NCBI RefSeq assembly: GCF_947498015.1
Contig: NZ_CANMIR010000005.1
Span: forward strand, 97,551 to 161,550
Origin: an uncultured Neptuniibacter sp.
Lineage (GTDB): Bacteria > Pseudomonadota > Gammaproteobacteria > Pseudomonadales > Balneatricaceae
DNA: 64,000 nt
Direction of reading: 5' to 3'
Part shown: positions 41,220 through 57,894 of the stretch, piece by piece
Numbering within the stretch: the first letter of the stretch is position 1
How the letters are laid out: every line of letters begins with the position of its first letter
Made by a program: the position numbers and the translations under genes
The notes under the pieces: generated by a model
The model's database searches: none
What the model was told of the DNA's origin: nothing
The model's input: the letters and a program-made list of their open reading frames with translations, nothing else

Positions 41220-41251
41220 AAAAAAAAAACCGCCAGTTGGCGGTTTTTTTT
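41220..41251. terminator. Bidirectional terminator between dapB and the response regulator gene
   Basis: A-run-ccgcc-agtt-ggcgg-T-run. Confidence 0.9.
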
Positions 41252-42479
41252 ATTCATAAACCACCCGATTTCGTCCTGATTCTTTGGCTTTGTAGAGCAT
41301 CTCGTCGGCACAGTTCATCAGCTTGGTGAGATTATCGGATTGCTTTTGAGCTAAACCGATGCTGACGGTTACAGGCAGCTCCTGCTGTTCAAATTCAAAT
41401 GTTGTATCGTGTACCAACTGACAGAAATGCTGCATCAAGAGGGCTGACTGCTCCAGATTCAATCCGGGCAGTAGTATGCAAAACTCCTCACCACCGATGC
41501 GGGCAAGCAGAAATCGCTGGAAGCTACGTTTCATCAAATCGGCAATCTGTATCAGCACCGCATCTCCAGCGTTATGACCGTAGGTGTCATTAATGCTTTT
41601 AAACAGATCCAGATCCATCATGGCTAAACAGGTTGATGCTGAGCTGCTCATGACGCCCGAAGCCTGATCAAACAGGTAGCGCCGGTTATGTAGCCCTGTT
41701 AAGTAGTCTCTGTTAGCCGCCTCTTTAATCTGTTCAACCAGCTCCATCTCCTGCAAGTTATGCATGACACGGCAGTGCAATTCTTCGTAGTTAAACGGTT
41801 TTTTCAGGAAGTCATTCGCGCCACTTTTGATAAATTTAGAGGAGAGTGCTGGATTATCAGCTGCTGATAAGCCGATGATCTTAAGATCTGAAGTTTCATA
41901 CTCCTTACGGATACACTGGATCAGCTCTATCCCATCCATCACCGGCATTTCATAGTCCGTCAGTAATAGTCGGATATCGGGTTCCTGTTGCAGCATCTCA
42001 ATCGCATTGCGGCCATGCTCGGCTTCGCATACTTGGTAAAGGTGGCGTTCAAGATGTTTGCGGATCAGTTGGCGGTAAGAGGAAGAGTCATCTGTTACTA
42101 ATATTTTAATATGCTGATTTTTTATTAGCCGCTGTATCAGTTGGATGGTGTATTCGTATGAGAATCGGCTCTCTTTCACTATGTAATCGACGACACCTAA
42201 TTTCAGCAGCGCTTCCCGGCGTTGATCATTATAGGAGGAGGTCAGCACGATCGTAGGAAGTGATTGCGCCAGCATAAGCTCAACAACTTCACCATCTGGG
42301 GCGTCAGGGAGGTTAAGATCAACCAGTGCTACGAAGATATCATCTTGATGATCAATGACACTCTGCGCATCTTTTAAGGTGGAACAGAAGATGGTTTCAA
42401 GTGGTATATCAGACGTTTGGAACAGCCGTTGCAGTACACGACTGACCATTTGACTATCTTCTACTACAAGTACTTTCAT
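41250..42479 (-). CDS. Dual-receiver response regulator diguanylate cyclase (REC-REC-GGDEF)
   Basis: Two receiver domains with phospho-Asp (VDLNLP, TDYEMP), DYLTGLHNRR and RIGGEEF; no RxxD inhibitory site. Alternative GTG start at 42491. Confidence 0.92.
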   Translation of the reverse strand: MKVLVVEDSQMVSRVLQRLFQTSDIPLETIFCSTLKDAQSVIDHQDDIFVALVDLNLPDAPDGEVVELMLAQSLPTIVLTSSYNDQRREALLKLGVVDYIVKESRFSYEYTIQLIQRLIKNQHIKILVTDDSSSYRQLIRKHLERHLYQVCEAEHGRNAIEMLQQEPDIRLLLTDYEMPVMDGIELIQCIRKEYETSDLKIIGLSAADNPALSSKFIKSGANDFLKKPFNYEELHCRVMHNLQEMELVEQIKEAANRDYLTGLHNRRYLFDQASGVMSSSASTCLAMMDLDLFKSINDTYGHNAGDAVLIQIADLMKRSFQRFLLARIGGEEFCILLPGLNLEQSALLMQHFCQLVHDTTFEFEQQELPVTVSIGLAQKQSDNLTKLMNCADEMLYKAKESGRNRVVYE

Positions 42480-42635
42480 CCGGTATCCCACAGCAAAATG
42501 TATCGGGTAAATTAGAGAGCAGTTTTATCACTTTAGACTAGACCCTAGTGTAAATAGTATTAAGCTTTGATCTAGTCCTGTTTTTTATGGGATCTGACTG
42601 GTTTAGTCTAGTTAAGAGAATCCAGAGGAAATGCT

Positions 42636-43742
42636 ATGAGCCATCATCCTTTGCAATATCTTCAACGCACAGATCTTTCAACCCTGTTTGACCTTCTTAT
42701 ACAGAAAGGTTTCTCCCTGTACGGCCCTCAGGTTGTTGAGGACGTGATCTCTTACGATCAAATAGATAGTGTGGCAGCTTTGCCACAAGGTATGACTGAT
42801 CAACAGTCACCAGGGCGCTATCGATTAAAATCCAACGGTGATCAGCGTCAGTTCAATTGGTCAAATGGCCCCCAGGCGATTAAACCACTCCTCAATCCTG
42901 CACGTGATGTGTTGTGGCAGGCCAAGCGCGACTCCAAGGGCCAGATCCACTTTGTTGTGCCTGAGGAGCAGATACAGAAAGTCGCTGTCATAGGGGCCAA
43001 AGCCTGTGATATTGCTGCGTTGAAGTTGCAGGATAAACATTTTCTCAAGGGGGAATATCCCGATCCTGGCTATCAGGCACGCCGTAACGGACTCTTTCTG
43101 GTCGCAGTCAACTGCACGACCGCTTCTGAAAACTGTTTTTGTGTGTCTACCGGCGATGGTCCAGAGGTAGAGGACGGTTTTGATCTGGTATTAACCGAAC
43201 TCGAAGAGGGGTTTTTAATCCGCCCCGGCTCCCCTTCCGGGGGTGATCTATTATCACTGCTGCCGACCAGGCCGGCTGATAAGGTCCAGTTGGCGCAAGC
43301 GTGTGAACAAGCGAGCCAGGTTGAGCGGCAACAGGTCAGAAGTATGAAAAAGATCCTCAAGGGTGAGCTTGAAGCGCAACGTGATCACCCGCAATGGGAT
43401 GATGTCGCTGAGCGTTGTCTGGCATGTGGTAATTGTACTCTGGTTTGCCCCACCTGCTTCTGTCATAGACAGAGAGATGATGTTTCGGTTGATGGCGTAA
43501 CCTCCAGTCATCTTCGGGAGTGGGACAGCTGTTTTGGTGAGTCACATGGGCAGTTGGCGGGGTTTCAGGTCAGAGACAGTGTCAAAAAGCGTTATCAGCA
43601 GTGGATGATTCATAAACTGGATAATTGGCAGGAGCAGTATGATCGCTCTGGTTGCACCGGGTGTGGACGCTGTATGACCTGGTGTCCTGCCAGTATCGAT
43701 TTTGTTGCGGAAGCCAATAAGATCGCGGGGGATGATGAATGA
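42636..43742 (+). CDS. Group 3b [NiFe]-hydrogenase (sulfhydrogenase) beta subunit, 4Fe-4S (AsrA-like)
   Basis: GAKACD, NC...CFC, RCLACGNCTLVCPTCFC, REWDSC and CTGCGRCMTWCP motifs. Confidence 0.9.
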   Translation: MSHHPLQYLQRTDLSTLFDLLIQKGFSLYGPQVVEDVISYDQIDSVAALPQGMTDQQSPGRYRLKSNGDQRQFNWSNGPQAIKPLLNPARDVLWQAKRDSKGQIHFVVPEEQIQKVAVIGAKACDIAALKLQDKHFLKGEYPDPGYQARRNGLFLVAVNCTTASENCFCVSTGDGPEVEDGFDLVLTELEEGFLIRPGSPSGGDLLSLLPTRPADKVQLAQACEQASQVERQQVRSMKKILKGELEAQRDHPQWDDVAERCLACGNCTLVCPTCFCHRQRDDVSVDGVTSSHLREWDSCFGESHGQLAGFQVRDSVKKRYQQWMIHKLDNWQEQYDRSGCTGCGRCMTWCPASIDFVAEANKIAGDDE

Positions 43743-44575
43743 TGGATCGTTATCAAAAACCGATGCGGGCTGTTGTGGACGAGTATGTTCGTGAGTCTGA
43801 AACCATCTTTACGCTGAGGTTGAGGTTGGCTGATGCTAAAGATCGGGCGGTCTATAAATTTATGCCTGGCCAGTTCAATATGCTCTATCTGTTTGGCGTT
43901 GGTGAGGTTCCCATCTCGATTGTTTCTGATCCCTTGGACCCCGAACTGATCGATCATACGATCCGTATTGTCGGTCGAGTGACGGAGGGGCTGGCAAGGC
44001 TTAAAGCCGGAGATGAGGTGGGGATAAGGGGGCCATTCGGGCATGGCTGGCCCATGAGTTTAGCCAGTGACAAGGATCTGCTCATTATTACCGGAGGATT
44101 GGGCTGTGCACCGGTTGTTGCGGCGATCAATTATGCACTGAAACGACGCGACCGATATGAAAAGTTGAGCCTGGTGCAGGGGGTTAAGCACAGTAATGAC
44201 CTGATCTGGCAGGCGCAATATGAACAGTGGAAACAACTGCCTGGCGTTGAAGTGTTTCTTGCGGCCGATCAATCAGGGCCGGCCTGGCCGTTTCATACCG
44301 GGCGGATCACCGAACTTCTGGATCAGGTTTCAATTAATCTGAAAGAATGCCTGGTCATGATTTGTGGGCCTGAGGGGATGATGCAGGTGGCTGCAGAAAC
44401 GATGATCGCTAAAGGGGTTTCGCCGTTCAGTATATATCTGAGTTTGGAGCGTAATATGCAATGTGCTGTCGGGCATTGCGGCCACTGCCAGATGGGGCCG
44501 AATTTTATCTGTAAAGATGGCCCGGTGTTCGTCTACCCAGAGGTTCGAGATATATTGCAGTTGGAGGGGGTGTAG
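43739..44575 (+). CDS. Group 3b hydrogenase gamma subunit, FAD/NAD(P)-binding with a 2Fe-2S cluster
   Basis: PGQFNML, GEVPISI, RGPFGHG, GGLGCAP, CGPEGM and ERNMQCAVGHCGHC...CKDGPV motifs. Confidence 0.92.
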   Translation: MMDRYQKPMRAVVDEYVRESETIFTLRLRLADAKDRAVYKFMPGQFNMLYLFGVGEVPISIVSDPLDPELIDHTIRIVGRVTEGLARLKAGDEVGIRGPFGHGWPMSLASDKDLLIITGGLGCAPVVAAINYALKRRDRYEKLSLVQGVKHSNDLIWQAQYEQWKQLPGVEVFLAADQSGPAWPFHTGRITELLDQVSINLKECLVMICGPEGMMQVAAETMIAKGVSPFSIYLSLERNMQCAVGHCGHCQMGPNFICKDGPVFVYPEVRDILQLEGV

Positions 44576-44576
44576 G

Positions 44577-45362
44577 GTGGAGAAGCCAACACTGGCTGTG
44601 CATAAGTTTAGCTCCTGCGACGGTTGTCAGCTGGCGCTCCTGAATAAGGGTGAGGCGCTGGTGGCGCTGAGTCAGCGTGTACAGATTAAACACTTCGCTG
44701 AGGCTGGAGTGGTTGATCAAGATGCGCTGGTCGATATCTCATTGGTAGAGGGGAGCGTTGTAACTGCTGCGGATCAAGTCAGGATTCAAAAGGTCAGGAA
44801 GAGTAGCAAACTTCTGGTGACGATGGGCGCCTGTGCTACGTCGGGTGGAATACAGGCGCTGAAAAACCTGTCAGGTGAGGCTTCAGACTGGACCGCCCAG
44901 ATCTATCCACATCCGGAATTTATCGATACGCTGGCACAATCCTCTGCGATCAAAGCCTATGTGCCAGTGGATTTTGAACTCTGGGGTTGCCCAATCAGTA
45001 GTGGTCAGGTTGTAGCTGCCCTAAACCAACTGCTCTTTGGCGTGTCACCTTTTGATGAAAATGAAAAGCTATGTGTTGAGTGCAAACGCCAGGGTAATGT
45101 CTGCACAGTGATCACACAGCAGGAGGCCTGTCTGGGGCCGATGACCCGAGCAGGGTGTGGTGCTTTATGTCCTGCGTTTGGGCGTGGTTGCTATGGCTGT
45201 TATGGCCCTGCCAAAACGCTTAATGAATCAGCTATTCGGCGCTGCTTTAGTGGGCTGGGTTTAATGGAGCCTGAGACTGAACGGGCTCTTCATCTGATTC
45301 ACCCTGATTCGGCACAGCAGGGTATTCGACCAAGCTTGCGGAAGGGAGACGCTGATGAGTGA
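44577..45362 (+). CDS. Group 3b hydrogenase delta (small) subunit
   Basis: SSCDGCQ, VEGS, GACATSGG, WGCP, CVEC, CLGP and CYGC motifs; no Tat signal. GTG start at 44577 follows GGAGG. Confidence 0.92.
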   Translation: MEKPTLAVHKFSSCDGCQLALLNKGEALVALSQRVQIKHFAEAGVVDQDALVDISLVEGSVVTAADQVRIQKVRKSSKLLVTMGACATSGGIQALKNLSGEASDWTAQIYPHPEFIDTLAQSSAIKAYVPVDFELWGCPISSGQVVAALNQLLFGVSPFDENEKLCVECKRQGNVCTVITQQEACLGPMTRAGCGALCPAFGRGCYGCYGPAKTLNESAIRRCFSGLGLMEPETERALHLIHPDSAQQGIRPSLRKGDADE

Positions 45363-46644
45363 GCGTAAAATTCAGATCGATGTGCCCTCTCTGGCGCGTG
45401 TAGAAGGTGAAGGCGCACTGCACCTGAAAATTGAGCAGGGGAAGCTTAAGCATCTGCAATTCAAGATCTATGAACCTCCCCGCTTTTTTGAGAAGTTTCT
45501 TGAAGGGCGCCACTATTCGGAGGTGCCTGATATTGTCGCCCGGATCTGCGGAATCTGTCCGGTGGCTTATCAGGTCAGTGCTGTGAACGCACTGGAGTCA
45601 CTCTTTTCTGTTGAACTGACCCCCTGGATTAAACAGATGAGAAGGTTGTTGTACTGTGGTGAGTGGATCCAGAGCCACAGTTTGCATATCCATCTGCTGG
45701 CACTGCCTGACTACTTTGGCGAGGATACTGTATTAGGGCTGGCTACGCAGAAGCCGGAGGAGGTCAAACGGGGTTTTGCTATTCAGGAAGCGGGGAACCG
45801 GCTGATCAAGTTTCTGGGGGGGCGCTCTGTGCACCCGGTCGGATTACAGGTGGGCGGGTTTAGTAAAGCGCCGGATATGAGAGCGGCACGTGAGCTACTT
45901 ACTTTCTTGGAGAGTGCTCTTCCTGAGGCGGTCGCGATGGCTGAGTGGGTTGCTGGTATTGAGATCCCTGATGATCCGCAGTCTTTTAATTCGGTTGCTC
46001 TGTCAGCTGATGAACGCTACGCAATCGAAACCGGGCGTCTTAGAAGCAGCTCTGGGTTAGACCTGTCTGAAGATGAGTATGAAAAGCACTTTAAAGAACT
46101 GCAATCACCCCACAGTACAGCGCTCTGGAGTCTGTTGAATGGGGAGGACTATCTGGTGGGGCCTCTGGCTCGGATGAACCTTAATTACAGGGAACTACCC
46201 GCATCAATCCAGACCCTGCTGCAACGGTTGGGTCAGCCCTTCCCGAGTCAGAATATGTTTCACAGTATGCTGGCCCGAGCGATAGAGATCTGTCTGATGC
46301 TCGAAGAAGCGATCACCCTATTAAAGCAGTACCAGCCTGAACAGCCACGTGTTGATGTGCAGGTTAAAGCGGGTGTTGGCTTTGGTTGGAGTGAGGCGCC
46401 CCGGGGCTTGCTGTGGCATCGATATGAGGTGGATGCAGATGGCATGATCAAAGCTGCCAAAATTGTACCGCCGACTAGCCAGAATCAGGCGCGTATTGAG
46501 CAGGATCTTCTACGCTCGTTAACAAATTTCGGGCTGGATCGCTCTGATGAAGCGCTACGCCTCCACAGTGAGAAGGTGGTGCGTAATTATGATCCCTGTA
46601 TCTCTTGTGCCACCCATTTTATCCGTATGACGCTGGAACGCTGA
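45355..46644 (+). CDS. Group 3b [NiFe]-hydrogenase alpha (large, catalytic) subunit
   Basis: ARVEGEG, L1 motif RICGICPVAY, EAPRG, IVPPTSQN and L2 motif DPCISCATH followed by an 8-aa cleavable tail. Confidence 0.95.
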   Translation: MSERKIQIDVPSLARVEGEGALHLKIEQGKLKHLQFKIYEPPRFFEKFLEGRHYSEVPDIVARICGICPVAYQVSAVNALESLFSVELTPWIKQMRRLLYCGEWIQSHSLHIHLLALPDYFGEDTVLGLATQKPEEVKRGFAIQEAGNRLIKFLGGRSVHPVGLQVGGFSKAPDMRAARELLTFLESALPEAVAMAEWVAGIEIPDDPQSFNSVALSADERYAIETGRLRSSSGLDLSEDEYEKHFKELQSPHSTALWSLLNGEDYLVGPLARMNLNYRELPASIQTLLQRLGQPFPSQNMFHSMLARAIEICLMLEEAITLLKQYQPEQPRVDVQVKAGVGFGWSEAPRGLLWHRYEVDADGMIKAAKIVPPTSQNQARIEQDLLRSLTNFGLDRSDEALRLHSEKVVRNYDPCISCATHFIRMTLER

Positions 46645-47126
46645 TGATTGGGGTGTTGGGTTTGGGTTCACCCCATGGTGATGATCAGATCGGGTGGTGG
46701 ATCGTTGAGAGATTGAAAAGCTGCAACTTAGGGCCTAACGTAGGTGTGGAAAAGATCAGCGCACCGGGGGTGTCGCTGATGAGTCTCTTTCGGCACTATG
46801 AACAGGTCATTATTGTCGATGCCTGTGAGATGGGGTGTGAGCCGGGGACATATCGAATTATCGACGCAACGCACTTTTCCGATCTGATACTCTCTGATCG
46901 GTTTAGTACGCATTCATTAGGAGTAACGGAGAGTGTTCAGTTAGCTCAGACGCTGTCACTGCCGTTGCCCCGTATCAGCCTGTTTCTGGTGCAGATGGAG
47001 CAGACCGAGCTGATGGCGCCTTTGTCTGCTTCGATTGAACGGCGTGGAACCGAAATGGTTGAGTCCCTCTTGAGACAGCTGAAACAGTTCCACGGATGCA
47101 ATAAAACGGAAAATAATGGTGTATAA
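46644..47126 (+). CDS. Hydrogenase maturation protease (HyaD/HycI family)
   Basis: GLGSPHGDDQIG, IIVDA and STHSLG motifs; ATG overlaps the TGA of the large subunit. Confidence 0.9.
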   Translation: MIGVLGLGSPHGDDQIGWWIVERLKSCNLGPNVGVEKISAPGVSLMSLFRHYEQVIIVDACEMGCEPGTYRIIDATHFSDLILSDRFSTHSLGVTESVQLAQTLSLPLPRISLFLVQMEQTELMAPLSASIERRGTEMVESLLRQLKQFHGCNKTENNGV

Positions 47127-47430
47127 ACTAAGTTTCTTTGTGCCAGAAAGTGATCTTGAAACGGTTAAACAAGCACTGTTCGATGCCGGAGCTGGCCGAA
47201 TTGGTGATTATGATCGCTGCTGCTGGCAGGTACTGGGCGAGGGCCAGTTCAGACCACTGGAAGGGAGTGATCCCCATATTGGCTCCCATGGAAAAGTCGA
47301 AACAGTAGCGGAGTGGAAGGTCGAGTTGGTCTGCGCAGATCAACTGATCAATCAGGTTGTAAGTGCATTGCGCTTAGCCCACCCTTACGAAGAACCTGCG
47401 TTCGATGTCTGGAAGCTGGAGACATTCTGA
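47116..47430 (+). CDS. Stand-alone YqfO-type (NIF3-insertion, PII-like) small protein
   Basis: YKLSFFVP, AGAGRIGDYDRC, GQFRP, HIG and AHPYEEPAFD, the signature of the PII-like insert of NIF3/YqfO proteins. Confidence 0.85.
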   Translation: MVYKLSFFVPESDLETVKQALFDAGAGRIGDYDRCCWQVLGEGQFRPLEGSDPHIGSHGKVETVAEWKVELVCADQLINQVVSALRLAHPYEEPAFDVWKLETF

Positions 47431-47460
47431 TCTCTCATTGTCAGGAAAAGGAAGCATTAA

Positions 47461-48828
47461 GTGACACAGCTGTTGGTAAGATACTCCCGAATTCTTGAAA
47501 TCGTAGGCAACATTGTCAAAGTCCACGTTCCACTCACAGAGGAGGGCGCTTCTCCTGTTTGCTTTGGTGATCTGGCGCTGATTGAAAATGAGGAGAATCG
47601 TGGCCAGCCGACCGCGCTGGCACAGGTTATTCTGTTGGATCGGGACGCGGTCTCACTGCAGGTTTTTTCTGGCACGAAGGGACTGTCAACGCACTCGGTC
47701 GTTCGCTTTTTAGGGCGTTCGATGGAGGTGACCTTTTCGCCTAATATTCTGGGGCGTGCTTTTTCCGGAACCGGGCGAGCGATTGATCAGGGCCCGGCGC
47801 TGATCGAAGAACCCAAAATTGAGATTGATGGGCCAACGGTCAATCCCGCAAGACGAGTGCTGGCTTCCCATATGATCCGCACTGATGTACCGATGATCGA
47901 TGTGTTCAACTGTTTGGTTGAAAGTCAGAAAATTCCGGTCTTCTCGGTAGCCGGTGAACCTTATAACCAGCTATTGGCGCAGATCGGAACGCATGCTGAT
48001 GCTGATGTGGTGGTATTTGGCGGTATCGGCTTGGTGTTTGATGATTACTACTACTTCCGTCAGGCTTTTGAAGAGGCCGGAGTACTGGCACGCACTGTCA
48101 TGTTTGTGCATCAGGGCTCTGATCCAACGGTTGAAGGCTTGCTGGTGCCGGATATGGCGCTTGCGGTTGCTGAACGCTTTGCGGTCGAAGAGGGGAAGCG
48201 GGTATTGGTGTTATTAACCGATATGACCGCCTATGCTGATGCGCTTAAAGAGATCGGTATATCCATGGAACATGTACCCTCTAATCGGGGGTATATAGGA
48301 GATCTTTACTCCCAACTGGCACGCCGTTATGAGAAAGCCTGCGACTATAAAGGCGCAGGTTCAGTGACGATTCTATCAGTGACCACAATGCCTGGTGATG
48401 ATGTGACTCACCCGGTACCGGATAACACAGGCTATATAACGGAGGGGCAGTTCTATCTGCACGACGGTGTTATCGACCCGTTTGGTTCACTCTCCCGCTT
48501 AAAGCAGCATGTGATCGGTAAGGTTACTCGCGAGGATCACAGCCAGATCATGAATACTATGGTGCGGTTCTACGCGGAAGCGCAGGATGCTGCACAGAAA
48601 CAATCGATGTCGTTTGAACTGAGTGAATATGATGAGCGTCTGCTGACTTTCGGTGAAAAATTCAGGCAGCGTTTTATGAATATTCAAGTCACTATGCCAT
48701 TAGAGCAGGCGCTGGACCTGTGTTGGCAGACACTGGCTGAATGTTTTCAGCCGCATGAGCTACTCATGAAGCAGGGTTTGATTGATAAATATTTTCCACA
48801 AGAAAAACTCTCGAACATTAAGGGGTAG
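47461..48828 (+). CDS. V/A-type ATPase subunit B
   Basis: LVESQKIPVFS, VLLTDMTAYADAL, TTMPGDDVTHPVPDNTGYITEGQ and SLSRLK motifs. Confidence 0.95.
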   Translation: MTQLLVRYSRILEIVGNIVKVHVPLTEEGASPVCFGDLALIENEENRGQPTALAQVILLDRDAVSLQVFSGTKGLSTHSVVRFLGRSMEVTFSPNILGRAFSGTGRAIDQGPALIEEPKIEIDGPTVNPARRVLASHMIRTDVPMIDVFNCLVESQKIPVFSVAGEPYNQLLAQIGTHADADVVVFGGIGLVFDDYYYFRQAFEEAGVLARTVMFVHQGSDPTVEGLLVPDMALAVAERFAVEEGKRVLVLLTDMTAYADALKEIGISMEHVPSNRGYIGDLYSQLARRYEKACDYKGAGSVTILSVTTMPGDDVTHPVPDNTGYITEGQFYLHDGVIDPFGSLSRLKQHVIGKVTREDHSQIMNTMVRFYAEAQDAAQKQSMSFELSEYDERLLTFGEKFRQRFMNIQVTMPLEQALDLCWQTLAECFQPHELLMKQGLIDKYFPQEKLSNIKG

Positions 48829-48831
48829 TGT

Positions 48832-49449
48832 GTGGCAAAACTGGCGCTGAATAAAACGACGCTGAATCGCGAAGGCCGTAAGCTGAAAGCGTTTCGTCAG
48901 TTCGTGCCTGCGCTGGATCTGAAGCGAAAACAGCTGCTGGCTGCTCGTCAGGAGACTCGCTTGTTATTACGGCAGCAACAGGAGCTGTTACAGACACTTC
49001 AACAGCAGGTGAGCCAACAGCTGCCGATGCTGTCCGGATATGATTTGGATCCGAATGAGCTGCTCCAGGTGAGTAAGCTTGAAGTGCGTCATATTAACCT
49101 TGTCGGGCTGGAGCTACCTGAGCTTTCCGTATTAGAGCTGGAGATTTCCACGTATTCCAGACTGCTGTTACCTCACTGGGTTGATGCCGTGATTCTGTTG
49201 CTGGAGCAGGCATTCAGAGCAGAGGTGGAGATACAGATCTATCAGCAGAGGTATCACCTGCTCGAAGAGGGACTGCAGAAAACCACCCAGCGCCTGAATC
49301 TTTTTGATAAGGTTCTGATCCCCGAAGCTCAAGCTAATATCCGAAGAATCCGTATTGCGTTGTCTGATGCTGAGCGTGCCGGTGTTGTCAGAGCTAAGAT
49401 CGCCAAAAACAAACGCGCGCGGATCGCGCTCCAACGGGGTGGGTTATGA
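48832..49449 (+). CDS. V/A-type ATPase subunit D (central rotor)
   Basis: MAKLALNKT, LDLKRKQL and TTQRLNLFDKVLIP motifs. Confidence 0.93.
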   Translation: MAKLALNKTTLNREGRKLKAFRQFVPALDLKRKQLLAARQETRLLLRQQQELLQTLQQQVSQQLPMLSGYDLDPNELLQVSKLEVRHINLVGLELPELSVLELEISTYSRLLLPHWVDAVILLLEQAFRAEVEIQIYQQRYHLLEEGLQKTTQRLNLFDKVLIPEAQANIRRIRIALSDAERAGVVRAKIAKNKRARIALQRGGL

Positions 49450-51236
49450 GTATACTCGCCCTGAAAAAAGCCACACTGGTCGGTTTGAGTGAAGATAAGG
49501 GCTCGATACTTGATCAGCTCCAGTCTCTGGGAGTCTTGCATGTCATCCCTTTAAGCGCTGCTCGCAGTGTACCCCAGCATCGGGATACCTCGATGGAGGG
49601 GGTCTCACCTGAGCAGTTGCATGGCTCATTACATTACCTGTTGAGTTGTAAGCAGAAACGGAAACAGGTTGTGAGTGAACGCCATTTTTCACTGCAGGAC
49701 GTGATTACCGCTGTTGAGAAGAATCGTTCGACACGGCTGTCTCTGGTAGAGCGTCATGATTTTCTCCTAAAACGGATAAAGGACCTGACCCCCTGGGGGA
49801 GCTTTATTCTGCCTCAGGAAAATGAGCTTTATGGACAGCGCTTCTGGTTCTATCTGGTACCCAATTTCAAGATGAAAGAGGTTGATAAAACCAGTCTGCC
49901 CTGGGAGCTGGTTCACCGCGATAACCGTCATAGCTACATCGCAGTGATCGCTGAGCATGAGCCTGCATTAAATGAGATGCCTGTGACCAGAACGCATACT
50001 GGAGCGGTTCCTTTAGATCAACTTAAACGTGAACTTGAGGATCTTGAAGTTGAGCTGGAAACGGCAGAGGCAGAGCGAGAAGGGCTGACGCGTTGGATCT
50101 ACCTGTTACAGAGATCGGTTGCCGGGACAGAAGATGCGGCACAACTGGCTGATGTAGCCAGCCAAACCCTTGATCAGGATGAGGTGTTTGCCATTCAGGG
50201 GTGGTGTGCAGAGTGTAATGCCGACCAGTTACAGCGCTTTGCTGATCAGCATTCCATGGTGTTGCAGCTGGAGGAGGTCCGGGAAGATGAGTTACCCCCC
50301 ACCTTGCTGGAGAACCCCAGATCAGTCGCTGGTGGTGAAGAGGTCGTTCAGTTTTTTCAGGTCCCCGGATATCGCAGTTGGGATCCCTCAAGGGTGGTGT
50401 TTTTCTCCTTTGTATCCTTTTTCGCTCTGATTATGTCGGATGCCGGATACTCATTGTTACTGGCGGCTATATTACTGTTTTACTGGCAGCGGCTGGAGCA
50501 AACTGAAACGGGTATCCGTCTACGCTCGATGGGGGTTGCGCTTGCAGTCGCTGGCTTTGTTTGGGGTGTGATCGTAGGAAGCTATTTTGGTGCCGATGCT
50601 CCCTTTGCATGGTTGAACAGATTAAAAATGCTCGATCTGAATGATTTCGACAGCATGATGTTGTTGTCGATCTGTATCGGTGCGCTGCATCTTATCCTGG
50701 GGAATTTGATGATGGCCTGGGTTAGACGCAGGAGTCAGCAGGCATTAGCTTCGGTAGGCTGGGCGCTGAGTGTGATTGCCGCTCTGACAGGTTGGATACA
50801 GGGCGTTGGCATAGGGCATTGGTTACTATTGGCGGTTGGCTTATTACTGGTCCTAACCTTTTCCAGTGGTCGTCAGGACTGGGGAGGGCGTAGATTTCTG
50901 GATGGCTTGCTGGCTCTGACGGGGGTGACAAAACTGTTTGGTGATGTGTTGAGTTACCTGCGGCTTTTTGCCCTGGGACTGGCCAGCGCATCGTTGGCGA
51001 TAACCTTTAATCAGTTGGCACTGGATGTCGCGGCAGCTCTGCCGGCTATAGGCTTGCTTTTTAAAGTCCTGATATTGCTGGTAGGCCATCTGCTGAATTT
51101 TTTACTGACGGTTGTCAGCGGTGTAATCCATGGATTGCGCCTTAATCTGATCGAATTTTATAACTGGAGTCTGGCTGATGAAGGGTACCCTTTCCAGCCG
51201 TTTGCAAAACAGGAGGTTTCACCTTGGATAACCTGA
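49446..51236 (+). CDS. V/A-type ATPase subunit I (a)
   Basis: Soluble N-terminal half, PTLLENP, SDAGY, GDVLSYLRLFALGLAS (essential Arg) and HGLRLNLIEF motifs. Confidence 0.94.
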   Translation: MSILALKKATLVGLSEDKGSILDQLQSLGVLHVIPLSAARSVPQHRDTSMEGVSPEQLHGSLHYLLSCKQKRKQVVSERHFSLQDVITAVEKNRSTRLSLVERHDFLLKRIKDLTPWGSFILPQENELYGQRFWFYLVPNFKMKEVDKTSLPWELVHRDNRHSYIAVIAEHEPALNEMPVTRTHTGAVPLDQLKRELEDLEVELETAEAEREGLTRWIYLLQRSVAGTEDAAQLADVASQTLDQDEVFAIQGWCAECNADQLQRFADQHSMVLQLEEVREDELPPTLLENPRSVAGGEEVVQFFQVPGYRSWDPSRVVFFSFVSFFALIMSDAGYSLLLAAILLFYWQRLEQTETGIRLRSMGVALAVAGFVWGVIVGSYFGADAPFAWLNRLKMLDLNDFDSMMLLSICIGALHLILGNLMMAWVRRRSQQALASVGWALSVIAALTGWIQGVGIGHWLLLAVGLLLVLTFSSGRQDWGGRRFLDGLLALTGVTKLFGDVLSYLRLFALGLASASLAITFNQLALDVAAALPAIGLLFKVLILLVGHLLNFLLTVVSGVIHGLRLNLIEFYNWSLADEGYPFQPFAKQEVSPWIT

Positions 51237-51670
51237 TCATAGCCCTGGGTTGGGCAGGGTTGTATGGCCCCATGGCGTTAGGCGCAATTGGAAGCATGAT
51301 CGGTTGCGCTCAGGCCGGGCAGGCCGCGTGTGGGGCCTTGCTGGAAACGGAAACCGGGCATGGCCGTTATATCGGGATTGCGGCGATGCCCTCCTCTCAG
51401 TCAATCTACGGCATTGTCGTGATGTTTGCACTGAACCGGGAGATCACCCTTGATAATGCTCCAGGCCTGGCGGCTATCGGGCTGTTATGCGGCTTGGCTC
51501 TTCTGTTTAGTGCCGCTTGGCAGGGGCGCTGTTGTGCATCTGCGATCAATGTGGCCAAAATCCGGCCTGAGATCTTTGGGATGTCATTGGCACCCGCAGC
51601 GATCGTAGAGGGATTTGCTGTCTTTGCCTTTATCTTTGCGCTGGTTATCAGTGCAGGTGTTCCTGCTTAA
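51224..51670 (+). CDS. V/A-type ATPase subunit K (c), four-helix proteolipid
   Basis: 148 aa with four hydrophobic helices; PSSQSIY, AWQG and IVEG motifs. TTG start follows AGGAGG. Confidence 0.93.
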   Translation: MDNLIIALGWAGLYGPMALGAIGSMIGCAQAGQAACGALLETETGHGRYIGIAAMPSSQSIYGIVVMFALNREITLDNAPGLAAIGLLCGLALLFSAAWQGRCCASAINVAKIRPEIFGMSLAPAAIVEGFAVFAFIFALVISAGVPA

Positions 51671-51685
51671 TCTAGGTGTCTGTTG

Positions 51686-52369
51686 ATGAAAGATGACCAT
51701 AAAAGCCACGCCTCTTCAGGTGTTGAAGCGCTGATTGAAAAACTCCGGCTACAGGGGGTTGAAAAAGGGCAACATGAGGCAGAAAAGCTGGTTGAAGAGG
51801 CGGAGCATCGTGCGGATTGGCTTCTCTCTCAGGCGAAGCAGGAAGCGGAGATGATCGTAGCGAAAGCGCGTAAGGAAGCTTCTCAATTAAAACAGGCAGG
51901 GGAAGATGCGCTGCGAATAGCCGCACGGGATATGCACCTCGAGGTGAGGGAAACGCTGTCACACTCCTTTACTGATCAGGTTGAACGGCTGGTGGCAACG
52001 CAGATGGATAATGAGGAGTTTATGCGCAGCCTGATTATGGCGCTGGTCTCTAAAGCACATCGTGATCATGGTATCAGTCATGCAGAGCAGATCGATCTGC
52101 TATTACCTGATGAGTTGATCGGTCTTGATGAACTCAGGCGTAACCCCAAAGAGTACCGTGAAGGTAAATTAAGTCAGTTTGTGCAGTCTCTTGCCGCTGA
52201 ACAGATGCGAGAGGGTGTTAATTTTGAGTGGTACGAAGGCAAAGGGATTAGAGTGCGATTGAGGGGTGAACAGGTTGAGGTGGATCTGAGCAGTGAAGCA
52301 GTAGCCCAGTTACTCCTAAAGCATCTGCAGCCTCGATTCAGGGCGATTATTGAAGGGGTAATTCGTTAG
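51686..52369 (+). CDS. V/A-type ATPase subunit E (peripheral stalk)
   Basis: GVEALIEKLRLQGVEKG, a long coiled coil and C-terminal LQPRF; alternative TTG start at 51683. Confidence 0.88.
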   Translation: MKDDHKSHASSGVEALIEKLRLQGVEKGQHEAEKLVEEAEHRADWLLSQAKQEAEMIVAKARKEASQLKQAGEDALRIAARDMHLEVRETLSHSFTDQVERLVATQMDNEEFMRSLIMALVSKAHRDHGISHAEQIDLLLPDELIGLDELRRNPKEYREGKLSQFVQSLAAEQMREGVNFEWYEGKGIRVRLRGEQVEVDLSSEAVAQLLLKHLQPRFRAIIEGVIR

Positions 52370-53058
52370 TGTCTGATTACTATACGTTGATTACAGCGCT
52401 GCCCTGGTTGCCGGATCTGGATCAATGTAAGCAGCTTCCGCTGTCTCGAATCGCATTAGAGCAGCGCTTGACGATGCTCTCTGAGCAGGATCGCCAACAG
52501 TTATTACGGGTGGAGTCGCTCTATCACCCCTCTGATCCAGCTTTGAAAGAACTGACTGATCGTGCTCTGGTCAGCGCATGGCAGGCTCAGCTTGAGTTGG
52601 TTCAATCTCAGCCATTGCGGGAATGTGTGCTCTACCAGATGGAGCTCAGAACCTTATTAGCTGCACTGCGGAGTCGTTCATCTGGTTTGGAAAATCCTAT
52701 GCATTTCTTTGGATTGGGGCGCTGGCTTCCGCGCATTCGCAAGCATTGGTTTGAACCCGCTTTTGGGCTTGAAGATGTCTATCCGCCGGTGAAAGAGCTG
52801 CAGCGTTTATTAAGTAAAGATAACCCAATGTTGGTTGAGCGCTATCTGTCTCAGTTGCTTTGGCGTGATCTTTCACATACCGAGCATGAGCACCACTTTA
52901 CCTTTGAAACGCTGGCATGTTTTGTCCTGCGTTGGGGGATAGCGGAGCAGTACATTCAACATGATGGGGTGTTGGCTTTGGAGCGTTTTAATCATTCCGT
53001 AGCGGCATTGTTGGCTAGCACAGATCTCGAGCTGCAGTTAGCTCAGGGGGTAAGGTAG
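52369..53058 (+). CDS. DUF2764-type protein, probable V/A-type ATPase subunit C equivalent
   Basis: YYTLITALPWL N-terminus and FTFETLACFVLRW near the C-terminus; located between E and A. Confidence 0.8.
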   Translation: MSDYYTLITALPWLPDLDQCKQLPLSRIALEQRLTMLSEQDRQQLLRVESLYHPSDPALKELTDRALVSAWQAQLELVQSQPLRECVLYQMELRTLLAALRSRSSGLENPMHFFGLGRWLPRIRKHWFEPAFGLEDVYPPVKELQRLLSKDNPMLVERYLSQLLWRDLSHTEHEHHFTFETLACFVLRWGIAEQYIQHDGVLALERFNHSVAALLASTDLELQLAQGVR

Positions 53059-54863
53059 TGGAACAGCAGGTTACAGCAAGGGTGAGCTCAGTCAGGGATG
53101 ATATCGTCACGATCTCGCTGTTGCAGGACAGTGAAGGCGTTTTTTACCCGATCTTGAAGAATGAAATGGTCTTTATCTGTCCAATTCGTACGGGTGTTGA
53201 TGGGCGTAAGGAAGCGTTACAGGCAGAGGTACTTAGAATCCGCCATGGTGAAGCTGATGTACAGGTGTTTGAGAATACCCGGGGCGTAGCTGTTGGCGAT
53301 CCCGTCAGACAAAGCGGACATCTACTTTCGGTCTCTTTGGGACCTGGGTTGCTCGGGCAGGTCTATGATGGATTACAAAATCCGCTTGAGGTGATCGCTT
53401 CTCAGCACGGTTTCTTTCTGCCCCGAGGACTGGAGGTGGATGGTATCGATCTCCAGCAGCGTTGGTCATTCCAGCCCTGTGTGAAGGTTGGGGATCATGT
53501 TCAGGCAGGTGATGCGATTGGACATGTTCAGGAGGGACGTTTTGAACACAAGATAATGGCACCTTTTGGTATGTCGACTGAAGCTGAGATCAGTTGGATT
53601 CAGGAGGGCTCTTTTACCGTAGATACGCCGGTTGCCAGAGTAAAACACTCCTCGGGTTTGGAGGATGAGATCTGCATGCAGCAGCGTTGGCCGGTGAGAG
53701 TGCCCGTAAGTGAGCCTTTACTTAAGGCGGGACTGAGCAAACGTGAGTACCCCAATGAACCTCTGCTGACATCGATCCGTCTGATCGATACCTTTTTCCC
53801 TGTTGCCCGGGGTGGTACGGCGTGTATTCCGGGTCCTTTCGGTGCGGGTAAAACGGTGCTGCAAAGCCTGATTTCACGCTTCTCTGATGTGGATATTGTG
53901 GTCATTGTCGCTTGCGGTGAGCGTGCTGGCGAAGTGGTGGAAACAATTACTGAGTTTCCAAATATGTCTGATCCTAAAGGTGGTTCGTTGATGGATCGGA
54001 CCGTGATTATCTGTAACACCTCCTCGATGCCAGTTGCTGCACGTGAAGCGTCGATCTATACCGGTATCACGATCTCCGAATACTATCGGCAGATGGGCTA
54101 TAACGTATTACTTATCGCTGATTCGACATCGCGCTGGGCCCAGGCGATGCGAGAAACCTCAGGACGTTTGGAAGAGATTCCCGGTGAAGAGGCCTTTCCG
54201 GCCTACCTCGACTCGGCTGTGCGAGCGTTGTATGAAAGAGCAGGTATGGTTCGCAACAATGCCGATGTCGTTGGAAGCCTCACTCTGATTGGAACGGTCT
54301 CCCCGGCAGGGGGGAATTTTGAGGAGCCTGTGACGCAGTCCACATTGAGAACAGTTAAGGCGTTTCTGGGGTTGAGTGCAGAACGGGCTTACAAACGCGC
54401 TTATCCGGCGGTTGATCCACTTATCTCATGGTCGCGCTATCTTGATCAGTTGGAGGGTTGGTATCAGGAACATATGGGAGATGACTGGACCGATAAGGTT
54501 AGGGAGATGCAGCAGTTATTGGAACGTGGTGAATCGGTGCAGCAGATGATGCAGGTTACAGGTGAGGAGGGGGTGACTCTGCAGGACTTTATCCTCTATC
54601 ACCAATCGGTCTCTCTTGATCAGGTCTACCTGCAACAGGATGCGTTTGATGATGTGGATATCTCGGTACCCCTGAAGCGGCAAAAGGAGGTGTTTAATCT
54701 CTTACGAGAGAGTTTACTGACCTATCCTGAATTGAAGGATAAAGCTGAAGTCAGGGATTACTTTGTCAAACTGACAGGGTTATTTAAAAACCTGAATTAC
54801 AGTCGCAGTGATAGTCCGGATTATCGTCGTTACCTCGAAGAGATACGTTCTCTCTCCCTTTAA
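53058..54863 (+). CDS. V/A-type ATPase subunit A (catalytic)
   Basis: Walker A GPFGAGKT, CGERAGE, MPVAAREAS, ADSTSRWAQA, LEEIPGEEAFPAYL and VSPAGGNFEEPVT motifs. Confidence 0.97.
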   Translation: MEQQVTARVSSVRDDIVTISLLQDSEGVFYPILKNEMVFICPIRTGVDGRKEALQAEVLRIRHGEADVQVFENTRGVAVGDPVRQSGHLLSVSLGPGLLGQVYDGLQNPLEVIASQHGFFLPRGLEVDGIDLQQRWSFQPCVKVGDHVQAGDAIGHVQEGRFEHKIMAPFGMSTEAEISWIQEGSFTVDTPVARVKHSSGLEDEICMQQRWPVRVPVSEPLLKAGLSKREYPNEPLLTSIRLIDTFFPVARGGTACIPGPFGAGKTVLQSLISRFSDVDIVVIVACGERAGEVVETITEFPNMSDPKGGSLMDRTVIICNTSSMPVAAREASIYTGITISEYYRQMGYNVLLIADSTSRWAQAMRETSGRLEEIPGEEAFPAYLDSAVRALYERAGMVRNNADVVGSLTLIGTVSPAGGNFEEPVTQSTLRTVKAFLGLSAERAYKRAYPAVDPLISWSRYLDQLEGWYQEHMGDDWTDKVREMQQLLERGESVQQMMQVTGEEGVTLQDFILYHQSVSLDQVYLQQDAFDDVDISVPLKRQKEVFNLLRESLLTYPELKDKAEVRDYFVKLTGLFKNLNYSRSDSPDYRRYLEEIRSLSL

Positions 54864-55065: not shown

Positions 55066-57894
55066 ATGACTCAGACAAATGTAAAAACGTTACCGCGTTT
55101 TTTAGTGCTCGGTACAGTGGCTATCACTGTGCTCCTGCTCGCGTCTGTGGCTACCCATTTCCTCTATAAAAACCAGAAAGATAGTGAAGAGCGCCTGGCA
55201 GCGCTTGAACTTGAGTTTATTGAGCGCGGTAAGGCGCGACTGGCTTCAGAGATTCAGAGTTCAAAAGATTACATCACCTATATGGTTTCGCAGGCAGAGA
55301 ATGTTCTTAAAGAGCAATCCCGGGCGGAAGTGATGAAAGCACATACGATCGCTGAAACCATCTATAAGAGTGAGCGTGGGAAGCGCCCGGATGCAGAAAT
55401 AAAAGAGTTGATCAGAGAGTCTTTGCGGAATATCCGTTTCTTTAATGGCCGGGGGTATATCTTTATCGATGATGATAAGGGCGTTTGCATATTACTACCG
55501 ACGCTCCCCCATGTTGAAGGGCGTTCTCTGTACGATAATCAGGATGACACCGGTCATTATATAATGCGCGGGTTGCTCAAGGCGGTTCAAAACCCACAGC
55601 AAGAGGGCTTTTCCAGTTATCGTTGGTACCCCCCTAACGATAAGCAGAATATGGCGGATAAGATCGCATTTGTTAAAACATTTGCACCCTACAACTGGTT
55701 GATCGGTGCGGGTGATTATCTGTATCAAATTGAGAATGACCTGAAAGCGCAGGCATTAAACCGTCTGAAAGCGATTAAATTTGGTGATCATGGTTATCTG
55801 GCTATCTTTGATGCGGATGGTCGGCTGCTATCTTCCCCTGGGATAAGTTCGCATAACGGGCAGGTACTGACCGATAGTCAGGAAAGTTTGGAAACGATCG
55901 CGTTAGAGCGAATATTTACCGCTGCAGAGAACGGTGGTGGGTATATTGAGTATGACTGGTACTTTCCAAATGGAGAGGGCCCCTTCCCGAAAATATCATT
56001 AGTGGATACCGTCCCTGGGCTGAATTGGACGCTGGTAGCCGGCTTTTATCCTGAAGATATCAAAGGGGTACGGGCTTCTCAGCAGGTGATGTTAGAGCGG
56101 GCAATGAGGGAAGATCGAACTCAGATCTATATCTTTCTGATATTGGCCGCCTTGGTGACGATTGGTCTAAGTATGTTATTTGGAGGTTGGGTTAACCGCC
56201 GATTTTCCCAGTATAACGATGAGATCGAAAGCAAACAGCGGGCCCTACAGCTGGCTTCCAGAGTATTTGATAATGCGCTGGAGGGGATTATGGTCTCTGG
56301 GGAAAACGGTCGTTTGCTCACTGTTAATGATGCTTTTACCGAGATTTCCGGGTATTCCAAAGACGAGGTGTTAGGGCGTAACCCAAGATTCCTTCAATCC
56401 GGACGTCATGATGAGCTGTTTTATCGAAATATGTGGCAGTCGATCAATACTCATGGTGGTTGGGCTGGTGAGATCTGGAACCGAAGAAAGAATGGTGAAG
56501 TTTTCCCTCAGTGGCTGTCGATTCGTGCGTCCCTGGATGAGCAGGGGATGGTGCAAAACTATATCGCCTCAATCACTGATCTCACTGAACGTAAGCAGGT
56601 GGAGGAGAAGCTTCGCTACCTCTCTGACTTTGATCCTCTGACCAATCTGCCAAACCGCCGGCTTCTGGGTTATCGCGTTGAGCAAACCATCGCCCTGAGC
56701 AAGCCGGGAGAGAATTTTGCGTTGCTCTATGTCGATCTTGATCATTTCAAGCATATCAATGACAGTCTGGGTCATAGTTTTGGTGATGAGATCCTCCAGA
56801 AGGTTGCTCAGCGGGTTCAGGAGATGGTGTCAGACGAGTGCACAGTGAGCCGTCTGGGTGGTGATGAGTTTATGGTGCTGATGCCTGATCTGACCAAGCT
56901 TGAACAGGTTGCTAATCTGGCTGATACCATTTTGAAACAGGTAGCATTACCGTTGGAAAGCGACGGACACCTGATGATTACTCCAAGTGTCGGTATCTCA
57001 GTATATCCGGACGATGGCCAGACCTTCGATAAACTGCTCCGTAATGCCGATGCAGCAGTACACTTTGCAAAGTCTCAGGGTCGTAATAACTATCAATTTT
57101 ATACGGCTGAGATGAATCAGCATGCCTCTGAACGATTAAAAACTGAATTGTCACTACGAAAGGCGGTCGAGAATCAGGAGTTTGAACTGTTCTTCCAGCC
57201 ACAGCTCTGCCTGAAAACTCAAAGGTTGGTGGGGTGCGAGGCGCTGATTCGCTGGCAGCATCCGGTTGAGGGGACTATTGCTCCAAACCGATTTATCCCT
57301 CTGGCTGAAGATACGGGGCTAATTCTGCCGATCGGCAGCTGGGTGCTCCAGCAGGCCTGCCTACAAGGGGTTAAATGGAAAGCAGAGTGTGCGGGCCCCT
57401 TCACAATGTCAGTGAATGTTTCTGTGCGTCAGTTCCGTCCAGAGCTGGTCGTTGAAGTTAAGGATGCACTGGAACAGTCAGGGTTATCACCTGAGTCTCT
57501 GGTTCTGGAGATTACCGAAAGCACCTTGATGCAGGATGAAGAGACAACGTTACAGTTGCTTCTTGAACTGAAAAGTCTGGGGGTGCAGCTTTCGTTGGAT
57601 GACTTTGGTACCGGCTACTCCAGTATGGCTTACTTGAAACGTTTTAATCTGGATCAACTAAAGATCGACCGGGCTTTTATCAGTGATCTTCCAAATAATC
57701 CTGATGATGCCGCAATCACCTCTGCCATTATCGATGTTGCAAGTCACTTCGGCCTGGTCACAGTGGCTGAAGGCGTGGAAACCGTTGAGCAGGCTCAGTT
57801 CCTCGCTTCAGTGGGATGTATTGAGGGGCAGGGATACCTTTACGAAAAACCGATCTCTGCCGTAGACTTCAATCGCAAATATTTCGCAAACTGA
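55066..57894 (+). CDS. Membrane-bound Cache-PAS-GGDEF-EAL c-di-GMP signalling protein
   Basis: Two transmembrane helices around tandem Cache-like domains, PAS (NDAFTEISGYS), intact GGDEF, EALIRW and DDFGTGYSS. Confidence 0.93.
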   Translation: MTQTNVKTLPRFLVLGTVAITVLLLASVATHFLYKNQKDSEERLAALELEFIERGKARLASEIQSSKDYITYMVSQAENVLKEQSRAEVMKAHTIAETIYKSERGKRPDAEIKELIRESLRNIRFFNGRGYIFIDDDKGVCILLPTLPHVEGRSLYDNQDDTGHYIMRGLLKAVQNPQQEGFSSYRWYPPNDKQNMADKIAFVKTFAPYNWLIGAGDYLYQIENDLKAQALNRLKAIKFGDHGYLAIFDADGRLLSSPGISSHNGQVLTDSQESLETIALERIFTAAENGGGYIEYDWYFPNGEGPFPKISLVDTVPGLNWTLVAGFYPEDIKGVRASQQVMLERAMREDRTQIYIFLILAALVTIGLSMLFGGWVNRRFSQYNDEIESKQRALQLASRVFDNALEGIMVSGENGRLLTVNDAFTEISGYSKDEVLGRNPRFLQSGRHDELFYRNMWQSINTHGGWAGEIWNRRKNGEVFPQWLSIRASLDEQGMVQNYIASITDLTERKQVEEKLRYLSDFDPLTNLPNRRLLGYRVEQTIALSKPGENFALLYVDLDHFKHINDSLGHSFGDEILQKVAQRVQEMVSDECTVSRLGGDEFMVLMPDLTKLEQVANLADTILKQVALPLESDGHLMITPSVGISVYPDDGQTFDKLLRNADAAVHFAKSQGRNNYQFYTAEMNQHASERLKTELSLRKAVENQEFELFFQPQLCLKTQRLVGCEALIRWQHPVEGTIAPNRFIPLAEDTGLILPIGSWVLQQACLQGVKWKAECAGPFTMSVNVSVRQFRPELVVEVKDALEQSGLSPESLVLEITESTLMQDEETTLQLLLELKSLGVQLSLDDFGTGYSSMAYLKRFNLDQLKIDRAFISDLPNNPDDAAITSAIIDVASHFGLVTVAEGVETVEQAQFLASVGCIEGQGYLYEKPISAVDFNRKYFAN

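Follow-up and report, generated by a model that had tools for sequence, protein, structure and literature searches.

The locus considered here raises the question of why the genes of a soluble [NiFe] hydrogenase should lead directly into those of a rotary ATPase, and whether the two products serve a common end. The window that was analysed is a stretch of 64,000 nucleotides (nt) from an uncultured Neptuniibacter sp. (contig NZ_CANMIR010000005.1, positions 97,551 to 161,550), and its positions 42636-54863 hold 13 genes on the + strand: hyhBGSL, a hycI-type protease gene, a yqfO-like gene, and the genes of a V-type ATPase (V-ATPase) in the order B-D-I-K-E-C-A, as identified from the listing of open reading frames and from Pfam and NCBIfam models. 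The pairing of hydrogenase and ATPase is real and old within the genus, and its explanation, on balance, is probably that two mechanistically independent modules are co-transcribed and share regulation under oxygen or energy limitation, rather than forming one coupled complex. The genes of the run are the following:

42636-43742, + strand: hyhB, hydrogenase beta subunit (4Fe-4S; AsrA-like); Pfam Fer4_22 at 6e-29, best NCBIfam match sulfhydrogenase HydB/ShyB
43739-44575, + strand: hyhG, gamma subunit (FAD/NAD(P)-binding and 2Fe-2S); Pfam NAD_binding_1 and DHODB_Fe-S_bind, NCBIfam HydG / 'cytochrome-c3 hydrogenase gamma'
44577-45362, + strand: hyhS, small (delta) subunit; Pfam Oxidored_q6, best NCBIfam match HydD/ShyD
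45355-46644, + strand: hyhL, [NiFe] large (alpha) subunit of 429 amino acids (aa); Pfam NiFeSe_Hases, best PDB matches 5yxy, 9nez and 9e15 (sulfhydrogenase I alpha) at ~1e-63
46644-47126, + strand: hycI-type maturation endopeptidase; Pfam HycI, TIGR00072 at 87 bits
47116-47430, + strand: yqfO-like 'hinge' gene for a stand-alone PII-like domain of 104 aa; aligns to 2gx8
47461-48828, + strand: atpB, V-ATPase subunit B; Pfam ATP-synt_ab and ATP-synt_VA_C
48832-49449, + strand: V-ATPase subunit D; Pfam ATP-synt_D
49446-51236, + strand: V-ATPase subunit I (a); Pfam V_ATPase_I, NCBIfam V-type subunit I
51224-51670, + strand: V-ATPase subunit K (c), a double hairpin with a Na+-type site; Pfam ATP-synt_C twice
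51683-52369, + strand: V-ATPase subunit E; NCBIfam V-type subunit E, PRK01558 at 1e-24
52369-53058, + strand: C/d-like subunit; Pfam DUF2764 at 4e-9
53058-54863, + strand: atpA, V-ATPase catalytic subunit A; Pfam ATP-synt_ab, ATP-synt_ab_Xtn and ATP-synt_VA_C, Walker A GPFGAGKT

The 12 junctions between these genes are overlaps of 4, 8, 1, 11, 4, 13, 1 and 1 nt or gaps of 1, 30, 3 and 12-15 nt, the 1-nt gap after hyhG being left when hyhS is started at the GTG codon at 44577 and not in the longer frame from 44463. With that start, the count of same-strand genes and every junction size given in a preliminary description of this DNA proved exact, and its remark that no terminator-like hairpin was noticed inside the run agrees with the number of terminator-like matches, which is at the level of shuffled sequence (16 against 13 +/- 3.8), all of them within coding sequence. 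In strand, in its short or overlapping junctions and in the lack of an internal terminator, the run thus has the layout of a single operon, and co-transcription across the hinge between the protease and yqfO-like genes is, on that layout, plausible.

The same arrangement is met in other genomes. Within the genus, the ATPase was detected in 22 of 22 genomes and hyhL in 20, of which two are fragmented assemblies and the other 18 have hyhL ~7.7 kb 5' of atpA. The 18 loci fetched from other species display an identical gene order, with intervals of -14 to +45 nt from hycI to yqfO and of 25-42 nt from yqfO to atpB; since the same tight hinge returns in 18 other species, the layout goes beyond what chance would provide. 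In all, 80 species loci were fetched by means of AtpB, of which 4 end at a contig edge and 76 could be scored, and hyhBGSL-hycI was found upstream of yqfO and the ATPase in 19 (Neptuniibacter, a Neptunomonas metagenome-assembled genome (MAG) and an Oceanospirillaceae MAG), the linked run sitting between dapB and a nudix gene throughout. Overall, about 20 Neptuniibacter species, two Neptunomonas-like genomes and one Oceanospirillaceae MAG share this layout. AtpB is 90-93% identical in most of the genus and 84-85% in its two most divergent genomes. In a tree of HyhL, all Neptuniibacter copies form one clade (100/100), nested in a 97/94 clade with Neptunomonas, Pontibacterium, Amphritea and Marinobacterium arenosum, outside which the unlinked hydrogenases of other Marinobacterium fall; as for a single or a double origin of the linkage at the dapB site (in Neptuniibacter and in Neptunomonas), the 97/94 clade mixes both genera with unlinked or ATPase-less relatives.

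What kind of hydrogenase is encoded can be read from all four subunits, whose best NCBIfam matches are sulfhydrogenase models (HydB/G/D/A, ShyB/C/D/A), and from the beta-gamma-delta-alpha architecture of group 3b, with AsrA-like FeS and AsrB-like FAD/NAD(P) subunits by both Pfam and NCBIfam. Comparison of HyhL with the PDB placed the alpha subunits of sulfhydrogenase I and of the Thermococcus kodakarensis cytosolic hydrogenase first (2e-64 to 3e-61), ahead of Mvh of group 3c (8e-49), NAD-reducing enzymes of group 3d (2e-42) and Frh of group 3a (1e-36 or weaker). Membership in group 3b, as put forward in the preliminary description and assigned here by NCBIfam and PDB comparison rather than by HydDB, is thus well supported. 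The translated HyhL carries the NiFe-binding CxxC pairs in RICGICP and DPCISCATH, the latter followed by a C-terminal tail of 8 aa, FIRMTLER, and the HycI-family gene that overlaps the 3' end of hyhL by 1 nt provides a dedicated protease for this C-terminal extension. No other gene of the run is as poorly conserved within the genus (32-49% identity). The order of subunits, the dedicated endopeptidase and the lack of a membrane subunit are shared with Pyrococcus furiosus sulfhydrogenases I and II, T. kodakarensis Hyh and Mycobacterium smegmatis Hyd3; unlike in those systems, the cassette of the window leads directly into an ATPase operon, with the hyp genes elsewhere (contig C4), and its subunits score far under the archaeal equivalog cut-offs, which indicates a bacterial branch of the group. 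Among named sequences, the nearest homologues of the hydrogenase assign the window to Neptuniibacter. The 3b enzyme of N. caesariensis was already catalogued in 2010 by Barz et al., where the ATPase is not mentioned (PMC2974642). The genome encodes two further [NiFe] large-subunit loci, of uptake type, and a weaker third match, but a single hypD (C8:32005-33612, C4:234201-235538, C4:245781-246116, C4:251485-252558), and the sole hyp set, on C4, presumably matures every hydrogenase, including the 3b enzyme of the window. As a separate observation on this family, two metagenomic proteins (P0060, P0076) join NiFeSe_Hases and HycI domains in a single chain of 592-597 aa, and long open frames of 590-715 aa continue past hyhL in six genomes (G264, G167, G136, G391, G140, G411); in these chains and frames the large subunit may be naturally fused to the protease that matures it.

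The second half of the run specifies a rotary ATPase whose catalytic A subunit contains the non-homologous insert (ATP-synt_ab_Xtn) and a Walker A motif, whose non-catalytic B subunit has ATP-synt_ab and VA_C domains, and whose rotor and stator set of D, I (a), K (c), E and C/d is complete. No frame in the run matched the Pfam models of an ATP-synt_F or a G/H subunit, and the lack of these genes fits the compact seven-gene subtype, that of the operons of Bacteroidota and Chlamydiae with the order E-DUF2764-A-B-D-I-K. The set of seven subunits in those operons, DUF2764 included, is the one found here, while the order in the window is rotated, with B first and A last. This rotated order is fixed in 80 of 80 loci (L043-L122), among them those of Gemmatimonadota and of the Alphaproteobacteria Bauldia and Algihabitans, with the DUF2764 gene at the identical position in each; its constancy across Pseudomonadota and Gemmatimonadota suggests that the operon spread horizontally as a unit.

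With respect to the transported ion, a HMMER alignment of AtpK with NtpK of Enterococcus hirae (2bl2) places PSSQSIY, WQG and VEG opposite PGTQGLY, AQG and VET, so that at the positions of the NtpK Na+ ligands T64, Q65, Y68, Q110 and E139, AtpK keeps S/Q/Y, Q and E. The assignment made earlier to the V/A type is upheld by the subunit matches, and a c subunit with a Na+ signature is supported by this alignment. Built as a double hairpin, the c subunit has a single carboxylate for every four helices, as in the E. hirae Na+ pump; because of this ratio less ion would be moved per ATP, and hydrolysis-driven pumping is favoured. The window enzyme resembles the E. hirae Ntp Na+-V-ATPase in its A, B, D, I, K and E subunits, including the double-hairpin K with Na+ ligands, and is expected to act, as Ntp does, as an ATP-driven Na+ pump; it differs in having only seven genes, in the order B-D-I-K-E-C-A, in its use of DUF2764 as the C-like subunit, and in its gammaproteobacterial host.

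Between the two modules lies the yqfO-like gene, whose product of 104 aa found no match in Pfam or NCBIfam and can be aligned with residues 163-261 of 2gx8, a NIF3-related protein (4e-22); this segment corresponds to the PII-like insert. The gene is kept at the dapB...nudix locus whether ATPase or hydrogenase is lost, being the one constant of a locus with three states (L136:7252-12640; L137:1462-8645). The notion that it belongs to the ATPase module only was rejected, given that hyh-yqfO loci without the ATPase exist. A AATAAAACGGAAA block lies ~10 nt 5' of its start (window 47098-47115) and is conserved at the nucleotide level at that position in 18 other species, in hycI coding sequence or in spacer alike; this block is probably the translation-initiation signal of yqfO.

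Does the association extend beyond this genus and its relatives? An even sample of 400 gammaproteobacterial genomes was searched for hyhL-like genes, present in 102, and for V/A-type atpA, present in 51; both occurred in 27, an odds ratio of 4.1 (Fisher p = 8e-6) that ignores phylogeny and shared lifestyle. In 7 of the 27, from six families, hyhL lies 7-25 kb from a V-ATPase on one contig, for which the chance is ~1.7% per genome (binomial p ~2e-7). These seven carry a different V-ATPase, whose genes run G/H-C-I-K-F-E-A-B-D, whose c subunit is a single hairpin and whose A subunit is ~40% identical to that of the window; the operons of this second type (type 2) possess an F subunit. In Sulfurivermis fontis (AP018724) the ATPase operon and hyhB diverge across a 164-nt spacer, and genome G168 follows the same divergent plan; in G200, hyhBGSL-hycI and hypCABDFE are followed, after 70 nt and in the same orientation, by the V-ATPase; and genes for HycI, HupH, HypA and HypB flank the V-ATPase of Thiohalomonas denitrificans. 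The loci of S. fontis, G168 and G200 thus resemble the window in that a 3b operon stands directly beside a complete V-ATPase operon, but theirs is of the other type (A 39-41% identical), is divergent or hyp-linked, and is without yqfO. In S. fontis, a methyl-accepting chemotaxis gene (PilJ-HAMP-MCPsignal-CZB; L134:6402-8360) is inserted between hyhB and hyhG.

Expression data from another gammaproteobacterium bear on the same point. In the Riftia symbiont 'Candidatus Endoriftia persephone', Mitchell et al. (2024) described the co-expression of Hyd1e, Hyd3b, V-type ATPases and Mrp-Mbx with the reductive tricarboxylic acid cycle, the F-type ATPase, the bc1 complex and the cbb3 oxidase being co-expressed with the Calvin-Benson-Bassham cycle (PMC11636981). 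As in the window, a 3b hydrogenase and V-type ATPases are there associated, apart from the F-type enzyme, but the evidence is transcriptional and not operonic, the organism is a sulfur-oxidising autotroph, and its V-ATPase is termed 'type 2'. Across the sampled class, the association of hydrogenase and V-ATPase is recurrent but facultative.

How two modules that share no complex might serve one physiological state can be outlined as follows. The run is a composite cluster in which a complete 3b cassette (hyhBGSL and protease) abuts a yqfO-headed, seven-gene operon for a Na+-type V-ATPase. Both modules would be transcribed together from the region 5' of hyhB, with yqfO translationally coupled to the protease gene, and the inducing condition is probably a limitation of oxygen or energy. 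The soluble hydrogenase would then rid the cell of surplus NAD(P)H by forming H2, and the V-ATPase would spend ATP from substrate-level phosphorylation on holding the Na+ gradient that is normally made by the Na+-translocating NADH:quinone reductase (Na+-NQR). A response to oxygen or energy limitation is suggested by the behaviour of 3b enzymes, by the pump-like c subunit, by the presence, for growth with oxygen, of Na+-NQR and of an F-type synthase, and by the pattern in Endoriftia. NqrF is encoded in the genome, and the separate F-type synthase anticipated in the preliminary description is represented by an alpha/beta pair on another contig, C10; these, together with the Na+ ligands kept by AtpK, make a sodium economy plausible. 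Of the two modes of operation proposed earlier, the one in which NAD(P)H is vented as H2 and ATP is spent on the Na+ gradient is that which fits best.

Several observations weigh against shared control of the two modules. At the 76 scorable loci the BDIKECA ATPase occurs without the hydrogenase in 57, being present as yqfO-ATPase only, usually dapB-yqfO-atp-nudix, in 27 species loci (Marinobacterium, Nitrincola, Neptunomonas japonica, N. marinus, Neptuniibacter sp. 1_MG-2023) and without yqfO in 30 (Oceanospirillum, Marinospirillum, Gemmatimonadota and others). The reverse state, dapB...hyhBGSL-hycI-yqfO-nudix with no ATPase, is found in a Pontibacterium MAG and in M. arenosum. In N. marinus and sp. 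1_MG-2023, the two hydrogenase-less Neptuniibacter species, the ATPase is intact and a 138-nt remnant of the 3' end of hycI remains 5' of yqfO, from which it follows that hyhBGSL and most of hycI were deleted there: the spacer of sp. 1_MG-2023 (L013:10155-10290) aligns over 138 nt, at 74.6%, with the hycI 3' end of N. pectenicola (L050:9446-9582), and at the left breakpoint of that deletion the local alignment was no better than with shuffled sequences. Both modules are present but unlinked in Marinobacterium sp. YM272 and M. sediminicola, and in Amphritea the hydrogenase lies by itself at a different genomic site. Because a single site occurs in three states, and either module has been lost without the other, the two are separable. 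In the wider class, a 3b hydrogenase occurs in one quarter of the sampled genomes, mostly without any V-ATPase, and the co-occurrence given above carries its limit as to phylogeny and lifestyle; type-2 V-ATPases also occur with no hydrogenase nearby (Thiohalobacter sp. COW1, Thermithiobacillus) or within a formate dehydrogenase cluster (Ramlibacter sp. 2FC). The terms 'dedicated' and 'couples', used in the first account of the run, are accordingly too strong, and the survey of genomes that it called for, in which 3b hydrogenases were sought next to BDIKECA clusters, yielded the linked state in 19 species loci alongside these unlinked and single-module ones; the functional association that it proposed stands as far as co-occurrence and clustering in other families and co-expression in Endoriftia are concerned, and falls short in that the modules are lost independently at the locus.

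The regulatory signals and the transcripts bear on both sides of the balance. No regulator site was identified, and control by an FNR/ANR box was rejected, TTGAT-N4-ATCAA not being enriched over shuffled sequence in the 250 nt 5' of the first gene at 80 loci. In favour of a single unit, a consensus scan gave no sigma-70-like match on the + strand inside the run, and the RNA fold at the hinge is ordinary (z = +0.57). When the run, the sequence 5' of hyhB and the dapB-yqfO spacer of sp. 1_MG-2023 were scanned for sigma-70 and terminator consensus, nothing over chance was revealed; TTGATC and TAnnCT elements recur 5' of hyhB in several Neptuniibacter species, at a variable spacing that does not allow interpretation. 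Among the RNA runs searched, none contains the window's own sequence, and contigs from the metatranscriptomes matched no locus of the further species with which they were compared. Four metatranscriptomes yielded low-depth contigs 90-99% identical to the locus of N. caesariensis MED92, covering both halves at similar low depth and crossing from hyhL into hycI and, for three of the runs, from yqfO into atpB; these sparse data leave uncovered the 15 nt directly 5' of the yqfO start (L044 9639-9653), so that no transcript spans the hycI-yqfO hinge. The single operon proposed at the outset is thus supported by the tight layout conserved across the genus, and not by a transcript across its hinge.

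It may be, although we think it less probable, that the two modules are mere neighbours, the hydrogenase standing upstream of an older yqfO-ATPase operon that is driven by a promoter within the 3' portion of hycI, with separate regulation, no functional relation, and a spacing due to compaction. This is a serious rival, for which the hycI remnant and the contig depth beyond the hinge argue best. The yqfO-ATPase operon alone is indeed the commonest state of the locus and works alone in 27 species; the hycI remnant kept after deletion could hold an ATPase promoter, but no -35/-10-like block is conserved in the hycI 3' region among 19 aligned sequences, in which only the A-rich stretch AATAAAACGGAAA directly ahead of the yqfO start is conserved. 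Contig depth is somewhat higher over yqfO and the 5' end of atpB (3.6-7) than over hycI (2.2-3.3), and for the same genome pairs the hydrogenase genes evolve much faster than those of the ATPase (58-80% identity to the window for the hydrogenase subunits in the 18 loci, against 75-97% for ATPase B, K and A), both as expected of neighbours; compaction, however, has to account for a hinge that stays within -14 to +45 nt in all species, and accident hardly explains why hyh genes should independently cluster, in six other families, with a V-ATPase of another type, or why the two are co-expressed in Endoriftia.

A reversal of both enzymes, in which H2 would be oxidised to NAD(P)H and the V-type enzyme would use Na+ to make ATP when the ion-motive force is low, corresponds to the second of the modes proposed earlier and is improbable. 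ATP synthesis is known from some V/A-ATPases of bacteria, that of Thermus among them, but the double-hairpin c subunit of the window, with its low carboxylate content, favours hydrolysis-driven pumping, and the genome has a separate F-type synthase. Group 3b enzymes are bidirectional (PMC6852473), and the presence of uptake-type hydrogenases makes H2 part of the organism's lifestyle (PMC2974642); these same uptake-type enzymes, however, already serve H2 oxidation. Physical or allosteric coupling, in which the hydrogenase, or a redox state read by the PII-like YqfO, would bind and gate the V-ATPase within one supercomplex, is very improbable: yqfO persists in each of the three states, always at the hinge, and its product has the PII-like insert fold of NIF3 proteins, but the hydrogenase is without a membrane subunit, each module persists alone in many genomes, the type-2 V-ATPase/hydrogenase clusters lack yqfO, and the BDIKECA operons of Oceanospirillum, Marinospirillum and Gemmatimonadota lack both yqfO and hydrogenase.

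Co-transcription of two independent modules under shared regulation hence continues to be preferred, and a broader proposal can be attached to it tentatively, as one that we would sooner doubt than assert: that the linkage of 3b hydrogenase and V-ATPase is a unit for 'anoxic survival' that recurs in Gammaproteobacteria through convergent assembly, built at least two times with non-orthologous V-ATPases (the Neptuniibacter fusion, and the clusters of Sulfurivermis, G168, G200 and Thiohalomonas), in which the venting of NAD(P)H as H2 and ATP-driven ion pumping would be co-induced, so that membranes stay energised when there is no respiration, and YqfO would act as the regulatory hinge in Neptuniibacter. 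Both components are ordinary members of their families, while their conserved head-to-tail joining, the existence of the locus in three states and the return of the pairing with another type of V-ATPase appear to be undescribed; in agreement with the earlier statement that no description of this pairing was known, full-text literature searches found no description of a hyh-atp operon.

The role of 3b hydrogenases in aerobic or facultative bacteria and that of 'extra' V-ATPases beside the F-type synthase in proteobacteria are two open questions, and both are directly testable at this locus, since Neptuniibacter is a cultivable marine genus (type strain N. caesariensis MED92) for which natural knock-outs exist, of the hydrogenase in N. 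marinus and of the ATPase in Pontibacterium and M. arenosum. Co-induction of the modules under oxygen limitation would tie fermentative H2 production to upkeep of the sodium-motive force, and would help to account for the co-expression of Hyd3b and V-ATPase in vent symbionts.

The surroundings of the run consist of the following features:

42492-42635, + strand: region of 144 nt upstream of hyhB, common to the divergent response-regulator GGDEF gene; candidate promoter
41250-42491, - strand: divergent flanking gene, a response-regulator diguanylate cyclase (Pfam Response_reg twice, and GGDEF)
55066-57894, + strand: downstream flanking gene, a dCache-PAS-GGDEF-EAL signalling protein (Pfam)

The 202-nt gap 3' of atpA contains a 10-bp hairpin without a T-run, and the comparison of loci indicates that the response-regulator GGDEF gene adjoins the run only in a subset of species. 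Genes of cyclic di-GMP signalling (response-regulator GGDEF or Cache/PAS/MASE1-GGDEF-EAL) stand beside the operons of 3b hydrogenases in a number of unrelated lineages (window 41250-42491 and 55066-57894; L135:3635-6958; and beside hyhB in L020, L022 and L023), and in Sulfurivermis a gene with a guanylate-cyclase domain lies 3' of the operon. Finally, the complete type-2 V-ATPase operon of Ramlibacter sp. 2FC (L142:2764-20669), which stands among genes for a molybdopterin subunit, Fer4_11, cytochrome b and FdhD, represents another pairing of a redox module with a V-ATPase.

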